64,000 bases of DNA, from positions 305,832 to 369,831 of the forward strand of contig CBDBNT010000003.1 in NCBI GenBank assembly GCA_965208015.1, given 5' to 3'. This stretch comes from Dehalococcoidia bacterium (GTDB taxonomy: Bacteria > Chloroflexota > Dehalococcoidia > Lucifugimonadales > UBA3495). Of the stretch, positions 13,157-52,257 are shown in pieces (positions within the stretch are counted from its first letter, which is position 1; every line of letters begins with the position of its first letter). The notes below the pieces were generated by a model. It worked only from the letters and a program-made list of their open reading frames with translations, was not told where the DNA came from and did no database searches. Position numbers and translations under genes: made by a program.

Positions 13157-14339
13157 CTCACGCGTACCCACTTTGAGTTGAAGGGTTGAAAAAGGTCGGC
13201 CTCTCCGGGTAAGGAACGGGTTACCAACCACCGTTTCCACCAGGGGAGGACGACCATGCCATGGTATCACCAGGTTGCCACATTTCTGAACGATGCACTG
13301 CCGCAGTTTCGAGCCACTCGTCGCGCCAATCTGGTGCTGCTCACTGCGGCCATTCTCCAGCGGCGCACCCTGGTGATCTCGGTGTTGGTACGGTCGTGGC
13401 ACGTTCAGCTGCCCTATTCTCACCATCAGCGTAAGAAGCGGCTGTTTCGCTTTCTGTCCAACACCGCTTTTGATAGCGTAACGGTGCAGACGGCATTGTT
13501 GGGGACCATTTGTCAGACGGCCCGATTGCGGGGACTGGTTCCCATCATGATTGACTGGTCGGATCTGGGCCAGGGACGCAACGGTTTGTTTGCGGCCGTC
13601 TGCTTTCGGGGTCGTGGGCTGCCCTTGCTCAGCTGGGTGTCCACGCCGGCAGAGTTGGACCCGTCCCAGAACCGAGTGGAGGAGTTCTTCATCGGTCGGC
13701 TGTTGCGCCACTTGCCCGCCAACATCCGGCCCCTGCTGCTGGCGGACCGAGGCTTCGGGCGGGCCAGCCTGCTCCGCTTCGTGCAGCAGATGCCTAACCA
13801 CACCGGCTATCCCGTGGACTACGTAGTGCGTCTCAAGGGCGACGTGGTGGTGCAGCGCGCCGATTATCGCGGTCGGTTGCGGGACTATCCCTTGCGCAAG
13901 GGCCGGATCAACTTCTGGCCGCAAACCCTTTACCGATCCGACGGCGCCGTGGTCATCAATTTGGTCTTGTACTGGGCCCGTGGCCATCGGGAACCCTGGT
14001 ATCTGGCCACGTCCCTGACTGATCCCCGACTGGCAGTGAAGATGTATCGGAAGCGGATGCAACCGGAGCAGTACTTCAAGGATGGCAAGCAGCGCTTCGG
14101 GCTGGACCGCAGCACGGTAACCACCACCGCCCGGCTGCAACGGCTGCTGGTAGCGCTGCTCCTGGCCTGCTGCTTGCTGATACTGGCAGGAATGCGCGCC
14201 TCGCCAACCTTCCGACGACAGGTCTGCTCCCGGGGCAAATTGGGCATCTTACACTTGGGCTACGAATACTACCTGGCCACTCCCGACCCACCCGACGACT
14301 TCTTCACCATTGCACGCCGACAAACCGGGTACGCGTGAG
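13157..14339 (+). mobile_element. IS4-family insertion sequence, 1183 bp, intact
   Basis: Terminal inverted repeats CTCACGCGTACCC (13157-13169) and GGGTACGCGTGAG (14327-14339). Flanked by a 10-bp direct repeat. Single DDE transposase ORF whose stop lies inside the right IR. Confidence 0.85.
13256..14338 (+). CDS. IS4-family DDE transposase
   Basis: 360 aa. DWSD and LADRGFG acidic motifs, and Y-x2-R-x3-E-x6-K signature in YRKRMQPEQYFKDGK. Confidence 0.85.
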   Translation: MPWYHQVATFLNDALPQFRATRRANLVLLTAAILQRRTLVISVLVRSWHVQLPYSHHQRKKRLFRFLSNTAFDSVTVQTALLGTICQTARLRGLVPIMIDWSDLGQGRNGLFAAVCFRGRGLPLLSWVSTPAELDPSQNRVEEFFIGRLLRHLPANIRPLLLADRGFGRASLLRFVQQMPNHTGYPVDYVVRLKGDVVVQRADYRGRLRDYPLRKGRINFWPQTLYRSDGAVVINLVLYWARGHREPWYLATSLTDPRLAVKMYRKRMQPEQYFKDGKQRFGLDRSTVTTTARLQRLLVALLLACCLLILAGMRASPTFRRQVCSRGKLGILHLGYEYYLATPDPPDDFFTIARRQTGYA

Positions 14340-14424: not shown

Positions 14425-14712
14425 ATGGAAGGCAAAGTCCAGATCGAGATCACCTACTGCGTGCCTTGACAGCACCACGCTACCGCCACGTGGATGGCGA
14501 ACGAGTTTTTCCGAGCCTACGGCGGCGACGCCGCGATCACCATCTCCCCGCGCGGCCAGAGCATCATGGAAGTGTTCGTGGACGGCGAGAAGATCTTTGA
14601 CAGGAAGGCTGAGGGGAACATCTACCCCGACCTGGGCCGCGTCCGCAAGATGAAGGAAGTCATCTCCGCGAAGATCGCGCAGGTCGACTTGGCTGTGGCT
14701 GCCGACAACTAG
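14425..14712 (+). CDS. SelW/Rdx-family selenoprotein (95 aa) with in-frame UGA (Sec) at 14467-14469
   Basis: GGAGGA SD, then ATG 14425. The sequence MEGKVQIEITYCVP-TGA-QHHATATWMANEFF... gives a C-x-x-U redox motif. The remainder (track ORF 14494..14712) has the Rdx pattern G..MEVFVDGEKIFDRK..G.YP. Confidence 0.8.
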
Positions 14713-19535: not shown

Positions 19536-20252
19536 CTAATTCGCCTTGGCCACTACGGCCAATGCGGCCCGCGCCGCCTCGGTTTCGGCGGCGTTTTTGC
19601 TGCGACCCACGCCGGCGCCCAATACGTCGCCGTCCACTGCCACTTCAACGGTGAATTGAGGTTGATGCGCCGGTCCGGAGGACGCCACTACCCGGTAGGT
19701 TGGCGTGGGTTGGCCCTGCCCTTGCAGCAATTCCTGGAGTTCCGCCTTGGGGTTGTCCGGTCGCCAGCCGGGCTTGCAGGCCGCGGTTAGAGGTTCCGAC
19801 AGGGCGTGCAGCACCAATTCGCGCGCCGCGGCGTTGCCCTGGTCCAGGTAGACGGCGGCGATGACCGATTCCATGACGTCGCCCATCACGGCTTCGCCGG
19901 CCCGCCCGCCCGACGCTTCGAACCCGCGCCCAAGAAGAACGTACTCGGCGAGGCCGAGATCCCGGGCCGCGTCGGCCAGCGCGCGTTGACTGAGCAGGGA
20001 AGTCCAGCGCCGGGTCAGGCCGCCCTCATCGCATTCCGGCAGGCGGCGGTACAGCTCCTCGCTCACGATGAGGCGCGCCACCACGTCCCCCAGGAACTCG
20101 AGACGCTCGTAGGAATCCGTATCTGAACCGCCGGTCTCGTTGACGTAGGAGCGATGGGTCAACGCCTGAATGAGCAAGCCCCGGTCCCGAAAGCTCAGGC
20201 CCAGGGCTTGTTCCAGTTCGGCGACCGGGCGATTTGCGCCGGGCGAACTCAT
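19536..20252 (-). CDS. rnc: Ribonuclease III
   Basis: ERLEFLGD signature and C-terminal dsRBD. ATG 20252 (MSSPGANRPVAELEQALG) is preferred over track start 20288. Confidence 0.9.
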   Translation of the reverse strand: MSSPGANRPVAELEQALGLSFRDRGLLIQALTHRSYVNETGGSDTDSYERLEFLGDVVARLIVSEELYRRLPECDEGGLTRRWTSLLSQRALADAARDLGLAEYVLLGRGFEASGGRAGEAVMGDVMESVIAAVYLDQGNAAARELVLHALSEPLTAACKPGWRPDNPKAELQELLQGQGQPTPTYRVVASSGPAHQPQFTVEVAVDGDVLGAGVGRSKNAAETEAARAALAVVAKAN

Positions 20253-20268
20253 CCGGTGTCGAGCGCCG

Positions 20269-20901
20269 TTATCCGCGCACACCCTCATAGGGCCACGGCG
20301 GGGACGGTCGCTTGACCTCGCCCACGTGCTTGTGGTCGGCCATCATCTCGACCAGATTGTCGTAGATGGGTCCCGACTCGTCGTCGGACGGAATGAACAT
20401 CTTGACGAAGGCGGAGTTGCCGTTCGGGAAGACATAGAGGGGCACGCCGAAGGCGCCGTGCACTTCCACGGCCTCGGTGTGGCTCTCGCCGATCTCGCGG
20501 AGCACGTCCGGATCGGCCAGGTCCTCGGCAAACTGGCCCATGTCAACGCCCGACGCCTCGGCCACGGCGTTGATGGCGTCCGCGTCGGTCAGGTCGATGC
20601 GATCTTCGTGGCGAGCCTTCAGCAGGTTGATGAAGAAGCGGTCGAAGATCTCCTCGCCCTGGCGCTGCGCGGCGATGCCGGCCCGCAGCTCGAGCAGCGT
20701 GTTGTCCGAGTCGTCCTGCTCCCAGTACTTGAACCCGTCGTCGTTGTTGTTGTCGTGATTTACCTGGACCAGCGAGAATGGCTTCAGATCCACGGCGATT
20801 TCGTGGTCGGTATTCTCGCGTACTTTCGCCCACCACATGGCAGCGTTGTACACGAAGGGTCAACGAAAGTCGTAATAAACGGTGAAATCAGTTTCGGCCA
20901 T
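20269..20901 (-). CDS. DsbA-like thioredoxin-fold selenoprotein (210 aa) with in-frame UGA (Sec) at 20862-20860
   Basis: GGGAGG SD 8 nt before ATG 20901. The sequence MAETDFTVYYDFR-TGA-PFVYNAAMWW... is in frame with track ORF 20269..20853. The TGA sits at the redox-Cys position of the DsbA/FrnE-type (F/Y)xDFxCPxxY motif. Confidence 0.7.
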
Positions 20902-21057
20902 GATTTGGACCTCCCTGTCTGTGTTTGACCGTTGGTCCCGGGTGGGTTTTCCGGGTTCACTTGGTTCGTGGGCGGATTGTAGCACAGACGACTTCGGACT
21001 GGGCAAGTGTCAACCTGTCAACGCTGGAAGTGAGTTCGCACGAACTCACCGAGGGAC

Positions 21058-21354: not shown

Positions 21355-22641
21355 ATGGTTACCACCTTTAACGAAAACCTGTTTTCCCCTGAAGTCATCC
21401 AGGACCCGTATACGTACTTCGGCCGGATGCGCGAGGAGGATCCGGTTCACTGGAATGACCCCTACAAGCTGTGGGTCATCACCAAGTACAAGGACTTGGT
21501 TTGGGTCACCCGGCGCCCCGAAGCGTTCTCTTCCGAGGTATTCCACCGCGACCCGTTGCCTCCGTACCCTTCGATCGACGAGTCGGACATGGGCCTCTAC
21601 GAGGACGTGCGGAACTTCTTCAGCCAGTGGTTCATTCAGACCGACCGGCGCGCGGTCAGCACTCACGAGCACATTCGCGAGCACGGCGGCCCGGACCACA
21701 CCGACATGCGGAAGGTCATCCACGGCTACTTCACCCCCAAGGCCATGGAACTCTGGCGCCCGCTGGTGCAATCGGCCATCAAGCAGTTGCTGGACGAGGC
21801 CGAAGAGCGCGGCCACATGGACGTGATGCGCGACTACGCTACGCCGCTGCCGCTGCTGGTGATCGCCGCCATGATGGGCATCGAGACCTACGACCGGCAG
21901 TTCATCCGCTCGCTGGCCGAGAAACTGCTGTTCATCGGCCGGGGCAACGCCGACCGGATGCAGCCGCTGTCCGAAGGCATCACCGAGCTTCAGGACTACC
22001 TGCGGCCCATGGTCAAAGCCCGCCTGGACAATCCCAACGGCGACCTGCTGGACAAGATGACCGACGCCGCCCGCACTACCAACGCGGCCGGACAGCGCAT
22101 CATGGACGAAGAGCAGGTGGTCGCCAACGCCATCCTGTTGCTCCTGGCCGGTCACGAGACCACCATCAACCTGATCTGCAACGGCACCCGGGCGTTCATG
22201 GAGCACCCCGACCAGTGGGAACTGTTCAAGAGCGACCCCGCCGGCAAGATGATCCGCGCTACCGAGGAGTGCCTGCGATACGACCCGCCGGTCAAGTCCA
22301 TCACCCGCATCGCCGGTGAGGACGTCGAACTGGGCGGCAAGCTCATCCAGAAGGACGAGCGGATGCGCTGGTTCGTCACCTCCGCCAACCGTGACCCCGA
22401 AGTGTTCGACCGCCCCGACGACTTCGACGTCGAGCGGTATCCGAATCCTCACGTGGCCTTTGGCAGCGGCATTCACCACTGCCTGGGCGCGACCCTGGCG
22501 CGGCTGGAAGGGCAGGAAGCCTTCAAGGCCCTGGCCGAGCGGTTCCCGAACCTCAACATGAACTGCAACTCCGACGACCTCACCTATACCTCCAGCATCA
22601 CTTTCCGCACGCTGGAGACGCTGCCGGTGAGCCTGTCGTAA
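21355..22641 (+). CDS. Cytochrome P450 (paralog 1)
   Basis: I-helix LLLLAGHETT, ExxR (ECLRYD), heme loop FGSGIHHCLGATLARLE. Confidence 0.9.
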   Translation: MVTTFNENLFSPEVIQDPYTYFGRMREEDPVHWNDPYKLWVITKYKDLVWVTRRPEAFSSEVFHRDPLPPYPSIDESDMGLYEDVRNFFSQWFIQTDRRAVSTHEHIREHGGPDHTDMRKVIHGYFTPKAMELWRPLVQSAIKQLLDEAEERGHMDVMRDYATPLPLLVIAAMMGIETYDRQFIRSLAEKLLFIGRGNADRMQPLSEGITELQDYLRPMVKARLDNPNGDLLDKMTDAARTTNAAGQRIMDEEQVVANAILLLLAGHETTINLICNGTRAFMEHPDQWELFKSDPAGKMIRATEECLRYDPPVKSITRIAGEDVELGGKLIQKDERMRWFVTSANRDPEVFDRPDDFDVERYPNPHVAFGSGIHHCLGATLARLEGQEAFKALAERFPNLNMNCNSDDLTYTSSITFRTLETLPVSLS

Positions 22642-22668
22642 TCGGTTCGCAAATCCCCGCAGGGTTAC

Positions 22669-22705
22669 GAGGCCCGGCGAACATTCGCCGGGCCTCGGCT
22701 TTTGT
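22669..22705 (+). terminator. Rho-independent terminator after P450-1
   Basis: 12-bp stem GAGGCCCGGCGA / TCGCCGGGCCTC, 4-nt loop, then GGCTTTTGT. Confidence 0.75.
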
Positions 22706-22708
22706 CGC

Positions 22709-22737
22709 TTGCAAGCACGGCGTTCGGAGCCTATAAT
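22709..22737 (+). promoter_or_regulatory. sigma70-like promoter (TTGCAA-17-TATAAT) for P450 gene 2
   Basis: -35 at 22709-22714, -10 at 22732-22737. Confidence 0.65.
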
Positions 22738-22809
22738 CGGCGCATCAGAGCAGTTTGATCTGCGTAATTCGTCGGCAAATCACGTGTCGCACACCGGAGG
22801 TCGCAGGAA

Positions 22810-24069
22810 ATGGTCAGCACTATCAACGACAACCCATTCTCTCTGGAAGCGATGTACCAACCCTACGAGTTTTTCGCGCGGCTGCGCGATTGGGAGCCGG
22901 TACACTACAACGAGGAGTACGAGGTCTGGATGGTCACGGACTGGGAGCACCTGGTATGGGTGACCCGGCACCCGGAGGTCTTCTCGTCCAGCGTGTTCGC
23001 CCGGGACCCCCGGCCGCCGAACCCGCCCATCGACGAAGACGACATGGAGATCTACAACTACATCAAGAAGTGGCAGGTCTCCCGGTTTATCCAGCACGAC
23101 CAGAAGCGGTACAACCCCGGGGTCAGCGGGCCCGACCACGTGGACATGCGCCGGGTGATGCACGGTTACTTCACCCCCAAGTCCATGGAAATGTGGCGCC
23201 CCCTGGTTCAGTCGGCCATCGATGAACTGCTGGACGCCGTGCAGGAAAAGGGCCGCATGGACGTGATGGCCGATCTGGCCACGCCGCTGCCCCTGCTGGT
23301 CATCGCGCGGATGCTGGGCATCCCGGACAGCGACCGCCCCATTATGCGCCGGCTGGCCAAGGACCTGCGCCACCTGAACCGGACGGGCCCAAACCGCATG
23401 GGTCCCCTATCCGAATCGGTGCAGAACCTGCAGGACTACCTGGGCCCGCTGTGCGACGAACGCATCGCCAACCCCAAGGACGACCTGATCTCGGTCGTTG
23501 CCGAAGGGGCGCGGCGCGGCATCTTCGACCGCGACATGGTGGTGAACAACGTGATGCTGCTGCTCTCCGCGGGTCACGAGACCACCATCAACCTGATCTG
23601 CAACGGCACCCTGGCCTTCACCCAGCACCCGGACCAGTGGGCGATCCTGAAGTCGGACCCTGAAGGCAAGACCGTGCGCGCCACCGAAGAGTGCCTGCGG
23701 TACGACTCGCCGGTGAAGTCCATCCAGCGCATCGCCATGGAGGACATGGAGCTCAACGGCCAGCAGATCAAGGAGAATGACCGGGTGCGGTGGTTCATCT
23801 CCGGGGCCAACCGGGATCCCAAGGTGTTCGACCGGGCGGACGACTTCGACGTCGAGCGCTACCCCAACATGCACGTGGCCTTCGGCAGCGGCATCCACCA
23901 CTGCCTCGGCGCGACCCTGGCGCGGCTGGAAGGGCAGGAGATATTCCGCAACCTGGCCAACCGCTTCGAGAGCCTGGAACTGGAAGTCCCGGCCGAGACG
24001 CTGGAATACGACCAGCTCATCGGCCTGCGGGCGCTGGAATCGCTGCCGGTGACGGTCACCAACGCATAG
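22810..24069 (+). CDS. Cytochrome P450 (paralog 2)
   Basis: LLLSAGHETT, ECLRYD, FGSGIHHCLGATLARLE. Confidence 0.9.
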   Translation: MVSTINDNPFSLEAMYQPYEFFARLRDWEPVHYNEEYEVWMVTDWEHLVWVTRHPEVFSSSVFARDPRPPNPPIDEDDMEIYNYIKKWQVSRFIQHDQKRYNPGVSGPDHVDMRRVMHGYFTPKSMEMWRPLVQSAIDELLDAVQEKGRMDVMADLATPLPLLVIARMLGIPDSDRPIMRRLAKDLRHLNRTGPNRMGPLSESVQNLQDYLGPLCDERIANPKDDLISVVAEGARRGIFDRDMVVNNVMLLLSAGHETTINLICNGTLAFTQHPDQWAILKSDPEGKTVRATEECLRYDSPVKSIQRIAMEDMELNGQQIKENDRVRWFISGANRDPKVFDRADDFDVERYPNMHVAFGSGIHHCLGATLARLEGQEIFRNLANRFESLELEVPAETLEYDQLIGLRALESLPVTVTNA

Positions 24070-24095
24070 CCGCAACGACGACATCAGGCGCTTTC

Positions 24096-24131
24096 GTGCG
24101 CCGGGGAGGGTTATACGCCTCCCCGGCGCAC
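24096..24131 (+). terminator. Strong hairpin (14-bp stem) after P450-2, weak T tract
   Basis: GTGCGCCGGGGAGG / CCTCCCCGGCGCAC with an 8-nt loop, followed by ACCCATTTAAT. Confidence 0.5.
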
Positions 24132-24207
24132 ACCCATTTAATGGCGCTGTACGGTCAGCTGTAAGCCGGACCAAGCGCGAACGACTGCACTTCGTGCGAA
24201 TATCGGT

Positions 24208-24213
24208 TATAAT
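24208..24213 (+). promoter_or_regulatory. -10 box TATAAT for P450 gene 3
   Basis: TATAATCGGC is identical to the P450-2 -10 context. The -35 is poor. Confidence 0.5.
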
Positions 24214-24283
24214 CGGCCAATCTCAAGGCGCTGCGGGCTGTTGGGCCGGCAGCCATGTCAACGTACCACCGGAGGTACAACCA

Positions 24284-25555
24284 ATGGTAACCACCTTCAA
24301 CGACAATCCGTTTTCGCCGGAAGCGATCTACAAGCCCTATGACTTTTACAATCGGCTGCGCGAGCACCAGCCGGTGTATTACAACGAGCAACTCGAGGTG
24401 TGGATGATCACCTCGTGGGAACACTTGGTGTGGGTCACTCGGCATCCGGAGGCATTCTCGTCCAGCGTGTACGCGCGGGACACGCGCGCCCCGAACCCAC
24501 CGATCGATGAAGACGACATGGAACTCTACAACTTCATCAAGAAGTGGCAGGTTTCACGGTTCATCCAGCACGACCAGCGCCGGTACAATCCCGACGTCAG
24601 CGGCTCGGACCACATCGATATGCGACGGGTGATGCACGGCTACTTCACCCCCAAGTCCATCGAAATGTGGCGCCCCCTGGTGCAGTCGGCCATCGACGAG
24701 TTGCTGGACGCCGTCGAAGCGAAGGGTCGGATGGACGTAATGGCCGACCTGGCCACCCCGCTGCCTTTGCTGGTCATCGCCCGGATGCTGGGCATCCCGG
24801 ACAGTGAGCGGGAGCGGCTGCGCGAACTGGCCAAGGACCTGCGATTCCTCAACCGTGAGGGTCCCGACCGCATGAAGCCGCTGACTCAGGCGGTGCAGAA
24901 CCTGCAGGACTTCATTGCGCCAATGGTCGAGGACCGGATGACCAACCCCGAGAACTTCGATGCAACCGACCTGATGTCCGTGGTCTGCGAAGGTGAACGG
25001 CAGGGGGTGTTCAACCGGGATATGACCGTCAACAACATCATGCTGCTGCTGTCAGCCGGACACGAGACCACCATCAACCTGATCTGCAACGGCACGCTGG
25101 CATTCACCCAGCACCCGGAACAGTGGGCAATCCTGAAGTCCGATCCGGAAGGCAAGACCGTCCGCGCGACTGAAGAGGCGCTCCGGTATGACTCGCCTGT
25201 CCGGTCCATCCAGCGCATCGCGATGGATGATATCGAGCTGAACGATCAGCTGATCAAGAAGAATGACCGGGTCCGCTGGTTCATCCCCGGCGCCAACCGT
25301 GACCCCAAGGTTTTCGACCGCGCCGATGACTTTGACATCGAACGGTACCCGAACCAGCACGTCGCTTTTGGCAGCGGCGTCCATCACTGCTTGGGCGCAA
25401 CCCTGGCCCGGCTGGAGGGTCAGGAGATCTTCCGGAACCTGGCCAACCGCTTCGAGAAGGTCGAGCTGGAGATCCCGGTGGAAGAGGTCGAGTACGACCA
25501 CGTCCTCACCTTCCGCGCGGTGGAGAGCCTCCCGGTGAAGGTGACCAGCGCATAG
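24284..25555 (+). CDS. Cytochrome P450 (paralog 3)
   Basis: Start ATG 24284 (MVTTFNDNPF) after GGAGG. LLLSAGHETT, EALRYD, FGSGVHHCLGATLARLE. Confidence 0.9.
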   Translation: MVTTFNDNPFSPEAIYKPYDFYNRLREHQPVYYNEQLEVWMITSWEHLVWVTRHPEAFSSSVYARDTRAPNPPIDEDDMELYNFIKKWQVSRFIQHDQRRYNPDVSGSDHIDMRRVMHGYFTPKSIEMWRPLVQSAIDELLDAVEAKGRMDVMADLATPLPLLVIARMLGIPDSERERLRELAKDLRFLNREGPDRMKPLTQAVQNLQDFIAPMVEDRMTNPENFDATDLMSVVCEGERQGVFNRDMTVNNIMLLLSAGHETTINLICNGTLAFTQHPEQWAILKSDPEGKTVRATEEALRYDSPVRSIQRIAMDDIELNDQLIKKNDRVRWFIPGANRDPKVFDRADDFDIERYPNQHVAFGSGVHHCLGATLARLEGQEIFRNLANRFEKVELEIPVEEVEYDHVLTFRAVESLPVKVTSA

Positions 25556-25591
25556 TCATACCGGCGCACGCAAACCCACATCGAACATCGA

Positions 25592-25628
25592 GCCGGCGGT
25601 CGCAAGAGTGGCCGCCGGCCATGTTTTT
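25592..25628 (+). terminator. Rho-independent terminator after P450-3
   Basis: GCCGGCGG..CCGCCGGC stem followed by CATGTTTTT. Confidence 0.6.
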
Positions 25629-25643
25629 GAGCAGACCCTCGGT

Positions 25644-25672
25644 TTGAATTGTAGAACCGCTTGTGATAATTT
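25644..25672 (+). promoter_or_regulatory. sigma70-like promoter (TTGAAT ... TGtGATAAT) for P450 gene 4
   Basis: -35 TTGAAT at 25644-25649. Extended -10 TGTGATAAT at 25662-25670. Confidence 0.5.
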
Positions 25673-25708
25673 TGACCGCACCGACGACCACCTACTCAGG
25701 GGTTCACT

Positions 25709-26938
25709 ATGCCCGCAAACATCCACGACGACCTGTTCGCCGCCGAGGCGATCCGCGATCCGTACGGCTATTTTGGAGCCCTGCGGGCCGAGGCGCCGGT
25801 TCACTGGAACGAGCAGTACCAGATGTGGGTGGTGACCAGCTACGAGCGGCTGGTGTGGACGGCCCGGCATCCCGAATACTTCTCCTCCGAAGTGGCGCTG
25901 CGCGACAACAAACCGCCTTCTCCCACGATCCCCGAAGAGGACATGGAACTCTTTGGCGCCGTGCGGAATTGGATGGCGGCCCGGTTCACCCAGAACGACG
26001 GCGCGAAGCACAAGGAAAAGCGCAAGGTGGTTCACGGCTTCTTCACGCCCAAGGCGATGGAAACTTGGCGTCCGTTGGTCCGCCAGACGGTGAACGACCT
26101 GCTGGACGACCTTCAGGGCGCCGGCCGCATGGACGTCATGCATGACTTCGCCACGCCGCTCACCTACAGCATCATCGCCGGCCTGATGGATATACCGCCC
26201 AGCGACCGCGCCTTCGTCAAGGAGCTGTGCAGTAGCATGTGCGGTTTCGACGGGAACCAGCCGGACCGGATCCGGATGTACGCGGAGGGCGTGCAGGCGG
26301 TGACCGACTACTTGGCTCCCATCGTGGCCGAGCGGGTCCGGGACCCGGGCGACGACCTGCTGTCGGTGATCTGCAAAGGCGAGATCATGGGAGCGTACAC
26401 CCGCGATGAGGTGCTGGCCAATGCCCTCCTGCTCCTGGTCGCGGGACACGAAACCACCAACGACCTGATTTCCAACGGAGTGCTGGCATTCGCACAACAC
26501 TCCGACCAGTTTGACCTCCTGCGAACCGACCCTGACGCCCACATCGTTAACGCCGTCGAGGAAGTGCTGCGATACGACTCTCCGCTGAAATCAATCCAGC
26601 GTGTCGCGACCCAGGACGTGGACATGGGCGACGGGCAGCAGGTTGGCAAGGACGACCGCGTGCGTTGGGTGATCTCGTCGGCCAACCGCGATCCGGAGGT
26701 CTTTGAGGAGCCGGACGCCCTGGATATCACGCGCAATCCGAACCCCCACGTGGCCTTCGGCAGCGGCGTTCACCACTGCCTGGGTGCCACCCTGGCGCGG
26801 CTGGAAGGGCAGGAAGCCTTCGCCGAACTGGCACGCCGCTTCGAGGGGTTCGAACTGGAAACCGATCCCAACGACTTGGAATACCTGCCCAGCGTGGGGC
26901 AGCGCACCCTGCTGAACCTGCCGGTTGCAACACGCTAG
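25709..26938 (+). CDS. Cytochrome P450 (paralog 4, most divergent)
   Basis: LLLVAGHETT, EVLRYD, FGSGVHHCLGATLARLE. Confidence 0.9.
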   Translation: MPANIHDDLFAAEAIRDPYGYFGALRAEAPVHWNEQYQMWVVTSYERLVWTARHPEYFSSEVALRDNKPPSPTIPEEDMELFGAVRNWMAARFTQNDGAKHKEKRKVVHGFFTPKAMETWRPLVRQTVNDLLDDLQGAGRMDVMHDFATPLTYSIIAGLMDIPPSDRAFVKELCSSMCGFDGNQPDRIRMYAEGVQAVTDYLAPIVAERVRDPGDDLLSVICKGEIMGAYTRDEVLANALLLLVAGHETTNDLISNGVLAFAQHSDQFDLLRTDPDAHIVNAVEEVLRYDSPLKSIQRVATQDVDMGDGQQVGKDDRVRWVISSANRDPEVFEEPDALDITRNPNPHVAFGSGVHHCLGATLARLEGQEAFAELARRFEGFELETDPNDLEYLPSVGQRTLLNLPVATR

Positions 26939-52194: not shown

Positions 52195-52257
52195 TCCCGG
52201 CCGACAACCGAGTTCAACGGCTCATGCTGGTCGATCAGGGTGTGACCGTCCCCGTGC

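Follow-up and report, generated by a model that had tools for sequence, protein, structure and literature searches.

The presence of selenium in DsbA-like proteins and the swapping of selenocysteine (Sec) and cysteine in this family are already established, and the gene described here opens no new question. DsbA-like selenoproteins with a UxxC motif were reported from the Sargasso Sea in 2005 (PMC1088965), and their number was later raised to 45 genes in 41 organisms (PMC5029168). A 2026 catalogue distinguishes a second DsbA-like form, in which the PF01323 domain carries the motif DxxUP (PMC13188914); no explicit description of these 'form 2' selenoproteins was found in Peng et al. 2016 and its supplements. 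Cysteine-based relatives have been described as well. NCgl2478, a cytoplasmic reductase with a CPFC motif that belongs with Rv2466c/Mrx2 to the DsbA-mycoredoxin cluster, strips S-mycothiol adducts by a monothiol route in which only the first Cys is used (PMC8280269). DR2335 of D. radiodurans, available as structure 7DK9, has no reported function (PMC8945050), and no functional paper on 7DK9 was found in the literature.

The locus compared here with these systems lies on the reverse strand of a stretch of 64,000 nucleotides from a Dehalococcoidia bacterium, called the window throughout. A sequence-only reading of this stretch had located a GGGAGG site, an ATG at 20901, an in-frame TGA, an ORF starting with GTG and a 9-bp stem, and direct reading found all of these coordinates to be correct. 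The gene is made up of the following features.

20269..20901, reverse strand: predicted coding sequence of a DsbA-like selenoprotein, 210 codons with Sec as codon 14 and a TAA stop at 20271-20269, based on Pfam DSBA, Cys orthologs and an AlphaFold model.
20910..20915, reverse strand: ribosome-binding site GGGAGG, read directly, with an 8-nt spacer to the ATG at 20901-20899.
20860..20862, reverse strand: in-frame UGA predicted to encode Sec (U14, motif YYDFR-U-PFVY), on the basis of TGA in 85/85 Sec-type loci and of TGT/TGC in 6 orthologs.

From the ATG at 20901, the frame reads directly MAETDFTVYYDFR up to the TGA at 20862-20860, resumes with PFVYNAAMWWAKV and runs to the TAA at 20271-20269. 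This TGA is the sole interruption of the 210 codons, and the mechanical ORF 20269..20853 opens past it, at an internal GTG (20853). With a Cys set at codon 14, the protein matches Pfam DSBA over residues 8-168 (E 1.4e-15; 58 bits vs a cut-off of 25.6), and the profile therefore crosses the TGA; none of the NCBIfam models matched the 210-residue protein. The Cys orthologs of 210 aa align with the window protein from end to end. Judged by sequence comparison, this is a genuine selenoprotein gene that is currently mis-annotated, the start being clipped by annotation pipelines because Sec is written as an in-frame TGA.

The fold of the product was addressed with an AlphaFold model of the Cys ortholog P0018, built on an alignment of 46 sequences (pLDDT 89, pTM 0.86). 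The model shows a strand at residues 6-10, the segment D-F-R-C14 and a helix at residues 15-31; residue 14 is thus predicted to cap helix 1 in a thioredoxin fold that bears a helical insertion. The window protein begins directly with strand 1, lacks a signal peptide and contains no Cys anywhere. Its active-site motif is U-P-F-V, with neither a CxxC nor a resolving Cys. Comparisons of sequence and structure rank the relatives as follows.

DR2335 of D. radiodurans (7DK9; C24S mutant 7DKA): sequence E 5.6e-16, TM 0.78, single Cys in FDFLCPYAW.
Rv2466c/Mrx2: sequence E 1e-3, TM 0.70, CPWC motif.
YjbH, GST kappa, HCCA isomerase, DsbM and FrnE: weaker E and lower TM, behind DR2335 and Rv2466c/Mrx2.

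The TGA falls opposite Cys24 of DR2335 and opposite the leading Cys of CPWC in Rv2466c, and Val17 falls opposite the resolving Cys. The proposal of a DsbA-fold protein with Sec in place of the active Cys and without a resolving Cys is borne out by these alignments, as well as by the TGT or TGC found at the same codon in orthologs. DR2335 is the best match in both sequence and fold: it possesses a single active-site Cys in F-D-F-L-C-P-Y-A-W, has no resolving Cys and shares a C-terminal (K/R)RPxP with the window protein, from which it differs by its Cys instead of Sec and by an identity of 26-28%. Rv2466c/Mrx2 and NCgl2478 are likewise cytoplasmic DsbA-fold reductases, and their C-P-(W/F)-C aligns with U-P-F-V; they retain, however, the second Cys and require mycothiol. 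With 24.4 bits against a cut-off of 27, the window protein stays below the threshold of the Pfam model for the Rv2466c-like family (PF22234), to which it is related in fold only.

The other described systems are more remote, or resemble the locus in part. DsbA-like form 1 (UxxC) has the same PF01323 domain, Sec as the first residue of the motif equivalent to CxxC and, shortly past it in the coding region, a SECIS hairpin, but it keeps the resolving Cys, whereas the window protein is Cys-free with a Val at +3. Form 2 (DxxUP), which can be likened to the window protein by motif and domain alone, shares PF01323 and a single Sec, and D11-F-R-U14-P15 fits its motif exactly. The name of its representative, MDP6049977.1, suggests a crotonase-linked or fused protein, whereas the window gene stands alone with 210 aa; no crotonase domain was found in any relative of the window protein. 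The classical dithiol oxidoreductases DsbA and FrnE differ by a CxxC with a resolving Cys. Finally, GST kappa and 2-hydroxychromene-2-carboxylate (HCCA) isomerase have a DsbA-type fold without CxxC and with one catalytic residue, a Ser, in the same place, but the sequence match is marginal (E 0.05, residues 101-158 only) and the fold match weaker (TM ~0.6, rmsd 8-10 A). In these enzymes, the catalytic Ser serves to activate glutathione and does not act as a redox nucleophile itself. An isomerase- or GST kappa-like chemistry, which had been suggested from the U-x-x-V arrangement, is conceivable but not where homology would point, these enzymes being clearly weaker matches than the nearest relatives, DR2335 and Rv2466c/Mrx2.

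The conservation of the TGA was examined among proteins and among genomes. A protein search returned 79 relatives, of which about 11 are full length (201-210 aa) and carry (F/Y)YDFRCPFVYNA with the Cys exactly at the position of the TGA (proteins P0018-P0031 read YDFRCPFVYNA). One relative has a W at this position, the rest are proteins of 189-194 aa that begin just past it, and no full-length Sec form is present among the 79. A genome scan with one genome per GTDB species yielded 347 relatives, the best 80 of which were analysed. These best 80 of 347 are all Dehalococcoidia/SAR202/Chloroflexota MAGs, mostly uncultured and partly sponge-associated, and in each of them the tblastn alignment begins at residue 1 or 2, i.e. 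across the stop. Together with the window, codon 14 is TGA in 81/81 of these sequences. It is also TGA in L082, L088, L089 and L090, which brings the total to 85/85 Dehalococcoidia/SAR202 loci with protein identities of 44-98%. Two of the loci L088, L089 and L090 are only 44-47% identical, L090 being closer, and L088 reads ...FFDYS-TGA-PFVYNA.... L082 is the contig of P0022, the protein with the W, and its DNA has TGA at this place. The residue at +3 after Sec is Val in all the members compared.

TGT or TGC was found at the Sec site in six loci (L081, L083-L087); a metagenome scan with an exact DNA pattern for Cys forms matched only one locus. L081, which has the Cys form, and L090, which has the Sec form, have their entire neighborhood in common: PHP, RNase T/helicase, OGG, ADH and PolyA_pol, then DSBA, rnc, ftsY, DUF2298, PMT_2, LPG synthase and amine oxidase. 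The search for Cys or Sec orthologs that the sequence-only reading had proposed was therefore productive, since both kinds occur in the same gene neighborhood. As far as alignment and gene order can tell, the Sec and Cys forms are orthologs, which is the standard comparative signature of a selenoprotein. The gene that follows the DsbA-like gene is listed next.

19536..20288, reverse strand: RNase III gene rnc, directly downstream, matched by Pfam Ribonuclease_3 and dsrm, with a 20-nt overlap with the 3' end of the selenoprotein gene.

Because the two ORFs overlap, rnc and the DsbA-like gene are probably cotranscribed. The rnc gene is directly downstream in all of the best 80 of 347 genome loci as well as in L081, L082, L086 and L089, and ftsY comes after rnc wherever enough flanking sequence is available. 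RNase III and a redox protein have no obvious link in function. On the Cys-form contig L085 (982-1799), the genes after the DsbA-like gene encode OsmC-like and glutaredoxin proteins and rnc is not found there, a hint of a redox-defence setting for this paralog or ortholog.

The mRNA downstream of the UGA was analysed for a SECIS-like structure, with the following result.

20827..20845, reverse strand: conserved SECIS-like hairpin CGCUGCC-AUGU-GGU(G)GGCG, 7 pairs with one bulged base on the 3' side and a 4-nt loop (20838-20835), based on RNAalifold and covariation.
20848..20856, reverse strand: 5' arm of an outer stem, UUCGUGUAC, present in the minimum-free-energy fold, a lower-stem extension in this clade.
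20815..20823, reverse strand: 3' arm of the outer stem, GUACGCGAG, present in the minimum-free-energy fold, pairing with 20856-20848.

The outer stem is the 9-bp stem that had been put forward as a candidate SECIS. It exists and belongs to the minimum-free-energy fold, but the conserved element is the hairpin at 20845-20827, located within what had been regarded as its 24-nt 'loop'. The fold of the single sequence is not better than that of shuffled ones (z = -1.47; 17/200 shuffles fold equally well), and it is because of the comparative evidence that the DsbA-like gene stands beyond chance. Comparison of the stem-loop in homologous genes, also proposed beforehand, separates the two helices. 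Across 40 distinct sequences, the outer stem is 87.8% paired without any pair changed on both sides, and 4/9 of its pairs are often broken in the ~60% identical clade; it is conserved only among close relatives, and was rejected as the conserved SECIS element for its frequent unpairing in that clade and its lack of compensatory changes. The inner hairpin is the only helix kept by RNAalifold on the same 40 sequences, and it is 95.2% paired even when distant members are included. Counted from the U of the UGA, columns 18-24 pair with columns 29-36 as CGCUGCC-(A/G)UGU-GGN(N)GGCG. Three of the 7 pairs have changed on both sides, from C-G to U-A, from G-C to A-U and from U-G to G-C, the last of these changes falling on the third positions of an Ala codon and a Leu codon, which are synonymous sites.

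Several controls bear on this hairpin. The observed pairing or covariation score is attained by 0/500 shuffles, and pairing falls to 23-62% when the partners are slid by 1-3 columns. If the bulge may sit in column 32 or 34, the 7 pairs form completely in 84/85 TGA loci vs 0/6 Cys loci, which retain 5 or 6 of them. Synonymous-codon entropy has its gene-wide minimum at codons 16-25 (0.35 vs ~0.9 elsewhere) and Ala21 is GCC in 79/79 sequences; the conserved peptide NAAMWLAK imposes part of the nucleotide conservation. The published bacterial SECIS model, as quoted in PMC13188914, asks for an upper stem of 4-16 bp, a loop of 3-9 nt, a UGA-to-loop distance of 16-37 nt and a G in the first two loop positions. 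The hairpin, which starts 15 nt after the UGA, lies within these ranges by its 7-bp stem, its 4-nt loop and its UGA-to-loop spacing of 21 nt. Its loop is AUGU in most sequences, with the G in third position, and GUGU in a minority; the rule on the G of the loop holds only for the GUGU variants or for alternative registers, which covariation does not favor. A subset of bacterial SECIS elements is known to depart from the published model (PMC13188914). The inner hairpin alone has an energy of -6.6 kcal/mol in the window, vs a threshold of -7.5 and a mean of -7.8 for the Sec forms, and the first 60 nt from the UGA, with inner and outer structure, reach -18.4 kcal/mol.

The codons that flank the UGA are biased as well. 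Arg13 (20863-20865, reverse strand), just 5' of the UGA, is encoded by CGT in 81/81 sequences despite a six-fold degeneracy, and the Pro codon just 3' of it is CCC in 75/81. This bias may reflect a codon-context requirement for Sec insertion.

The decoding of UGA was further investigated over the whole window with a codon-usage scan of every in-frame TGA. Only three sites passed: the one in the DsbA-like gene, one at 14467 on the forward strand and one at 52224 on the reverse strand. The last, which lacks a redox motif, is probably a false positive. A GC3-based scan for further selenoprotein genes in the window returned antisense artefacts only. The site at 14467 lies in the following gene.

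14425..14712, forward strand: predicted second selenoprotein gene, Rdx/SelW-like with the motif C-V-P-U, TGA at 14467-14469, outside the DsbA-like locus, based on the codon-usage scan and Pfam Rdx.

This ORF reads MEGKVQIEITYCVP-TGA-QHHATATWMANEFF..., a sequence of the CxxU type. Its product carries a Pfam Rdx match (SelW/SelT/SelH) over residues 6-72 that runs across the TGA (E 7e-13), and a GGAGG site precedes the ATG. Homologs in the same Dehalococcoidia genomes are either clipped to 72 aa or given a W at the TGA position, as in P0148 and P0150. The contigs of these homologs equal in length chromosomes on which the DsbA-like gene is found (4528537, 4377943, 4275039 and 4075112, among others). 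As far as it can be read from sequence, the presence of this second gene gives indirect support to the decoding of UGA as Sec in this genome. One full-length SelW-like homolog, P0155, has an Arg at the Sec position (YCVPRQHH), perhaps through a CGA variant or by error. Some of the homologs are filed under the sponge Geodia barretti, and a DDE transposase gene (Pfam DDE_Tnp_1) occupies positions 13256-14338 of the forward strand, immediately 5' of the SelW-like gene.

The two predicted selenoprotein genes have a sequence motif in common, GCCA-CGUGGA-UGGC at 16 nt after the UGA in the SelW-like gene (14483-14496, forward strand) and GCCA-UGUGG-UGGGC at 19 nt after it in the DsbA-like gene (20841-20828, reverse strand). 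This GCCA/UGGC-type motif may be a lineage-specific recognition motif for SelB. The register that it implies in the DsbA-like gene conflicts with the register supported by covariation. The alternative register GCCA/UGGC with a loop YGUGGN, as in the SelW-like gene, was tried and rejected, as the distant members L088, L089 and L075 can pair only in the 7-bp model.

A reading of the UGA by something other than Sec, be it by a near-cognate tRNA for Trp or Cys or through reassignment of the codon across the lineage, would account for the W given by some pipelines (P0022 and the Rdx homologs P0148 and P0150). In addition, no sel gene turned up when 662 kb of DNA was scanned for motifs of SelA, SelD and SelB, and an Rfam search of the window at gathering thresholds returned a single tRNA, a tRNA-Ser with a UGA anticodon, and not tRNA-Sec. 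In most bins of sponge symbionts, SelA and SelB occur together (PMC5649159), and Dehalococcoidia MAGs, with 46-49 genes, are among the bacteria richest in selenoproteins (PMC13326102). The W calls, however, amount to TGA translated under another genetic code. In the window itself, TGA is the ordinary stop of genes for chorismate synthase (aroC), valyl-tRNA synthetase (valS), a flavin monooxygenase, a transposase and others, the profile of valyl-tRNA synthetase being matched to its last position; the termination of such housekeeping genes by TGA therefore speaks against any reassignment. The residue aligned with the UGA in orthologs is a redox active-site Cys, which makes a classic Sec/Cys pair, a covarying hairpin at SECIS distance goes with the UGA and decays in the Cys forms, and the second UGA gene of the window is a CxxU member of Rdx, a selenoprotein family known for long. 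A non-Sec readthrough is for all these reasons very unlikely.

A start downstream of the TGA, at the GTG at 20853 or at an ATG at codon 22, would turn the 13 upstream codons into a separate short uORF or an untranslated stretch. This is how the gene is presently annotated: all public calls of the ortholog are 189-194 aa long, named 'hypothetical' or 'DsbA family', and begin at MW.. or [VM]YNA.., and the mechanical ORF list likewise begins at the GTG. The resulting product would nevertheless be deprived of strand 1 and of the active-site residue. Moreover, the 13 upstream codons match the Cys orthologs nearly residue for residue (YYDFRCPFVYNA) and show the substitution pattern of coding DNA. 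In codons 2-13, mean column entropy amounts to 0.42, 0.38 and 0.86 for the first, second and third codon position, which is a coding pattern, and it is 1.64 in the 45 nt preceding the ATG, the GGAGG-type site excepted. Such a site is present 6-8 nt 5' of the start in 82/82 related loci, the remaining upstream region being highly variable, and this conserved Shine-Dalgarno sequence precedes the ATG at 20901 and not the internal starts. The internal start is itself unconserved, codon 22 being Val or Thr in some members. Orthologs that uniformly begin past the TGA without a conserved N-terminal strand, which the sequence-only reading had named as the finding that would speak against it, are not what was observed, given the full-length Cys orthologs and the coding-like upstream codons. 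A downstream start is accordingly rated as very improbable.

An inactivation of a Cys-type DsbA-like gene by a TGY-to-TGA nonsense change, or an assembly error, has a negligible probability: TGA is one base away from TGT or TGC and Cys forms exist, but the same TGA recurs in 85 independent assemblies whose divergence (44-98% protein identity) excludes copies of one contaminant, the frame is intact and under purifying selection on both sides with no other stop, and the conserved TGA, the coding pattern of the 13 upstream codons and the conserved GGAGG-type site exclude such an origin.

The product is, very probably, a cytoplasmic DsbA-fold monoselenol enzyme with Sec14 as its sole redox residue and a UGA decoded by means of the hairpin. 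In the mechanism proposed for this enzyme, translation would initiate at the ATG at 20901. At the UGA (20862-20860), the hairpin at 20845-20827, 15-33 nt downstream and, in this clade, lengthened by the outer stem of 9 bp, would recruit SelB carrying Sec-tRNA(Sec), and Sec would be inserted in place of termination. The residue would then occupy the N-terminus of helix 1, directly past strand 1, which is the position of the nucleophilic Cys of the CxxC in DsbA and Rv2466c. The target of its selenolate would be a disulfide, an S-thiolated protein or some other electrophile, and the selenenylsulfide formed would be resolved by an external thiol, provided by a low-molecular-weight thiol or by a partner reductase. 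Since the protein is devoid of any cysteine, the catalytic cycle would have to be monoselenol. A monoselenol reductase or de-thiolase, with resolution by an external thiol, is the favored assignment because NCgl2478 works by a monothiol route. The comparisons show the conserved in-frame UGA, the Cys orthologs, the coding conservation to either side of the UGA, the covarying hairpin that goes with it, and the fold with the place of residue 14; we infer, in this scheme, the actual insertion of Sec, the binding of SelB, the substrate and the reductant.

The practical value of the gene lies in its annotation, as every public call found for the ortholog is without its active site. Restoring the Sec codon would add a further member to the large selenoproteomes reported in Dehalococcoidia. 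A DsbA-fold protein with one Sec as its only chalcogen residue would also offer a clear-cut case, in nature, of a monoselenol oxidoreductase, for which the Cys orthologs and the solved single-Cys relative DR2335 serve as comparison. It is conceivable, though rather doubtful, that the rnc-linked, Cys-free U-P-F-V group constitutes a distinct selenoprotein subfamily, unlike forms 1 and 2 and with a SECIS loop (AUGU) outside the bacterial consensus. If true, SAR202/Dehalococcoidia would have a rule of SelB recognition specific to their lineage, and the DsbA-fold enzyme would be strictly monoselenol.

On the other side of the DsbA-like gene, four tandem cytochrome P450 genes (428, 419, 453 and 409 aa) occupy positions 21355-26938 of the forward strand, in divergent orientation. 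This neighborhood is not common to the more distant loci, in which a PolyA_pol/CCA-adding gene is found upstream.
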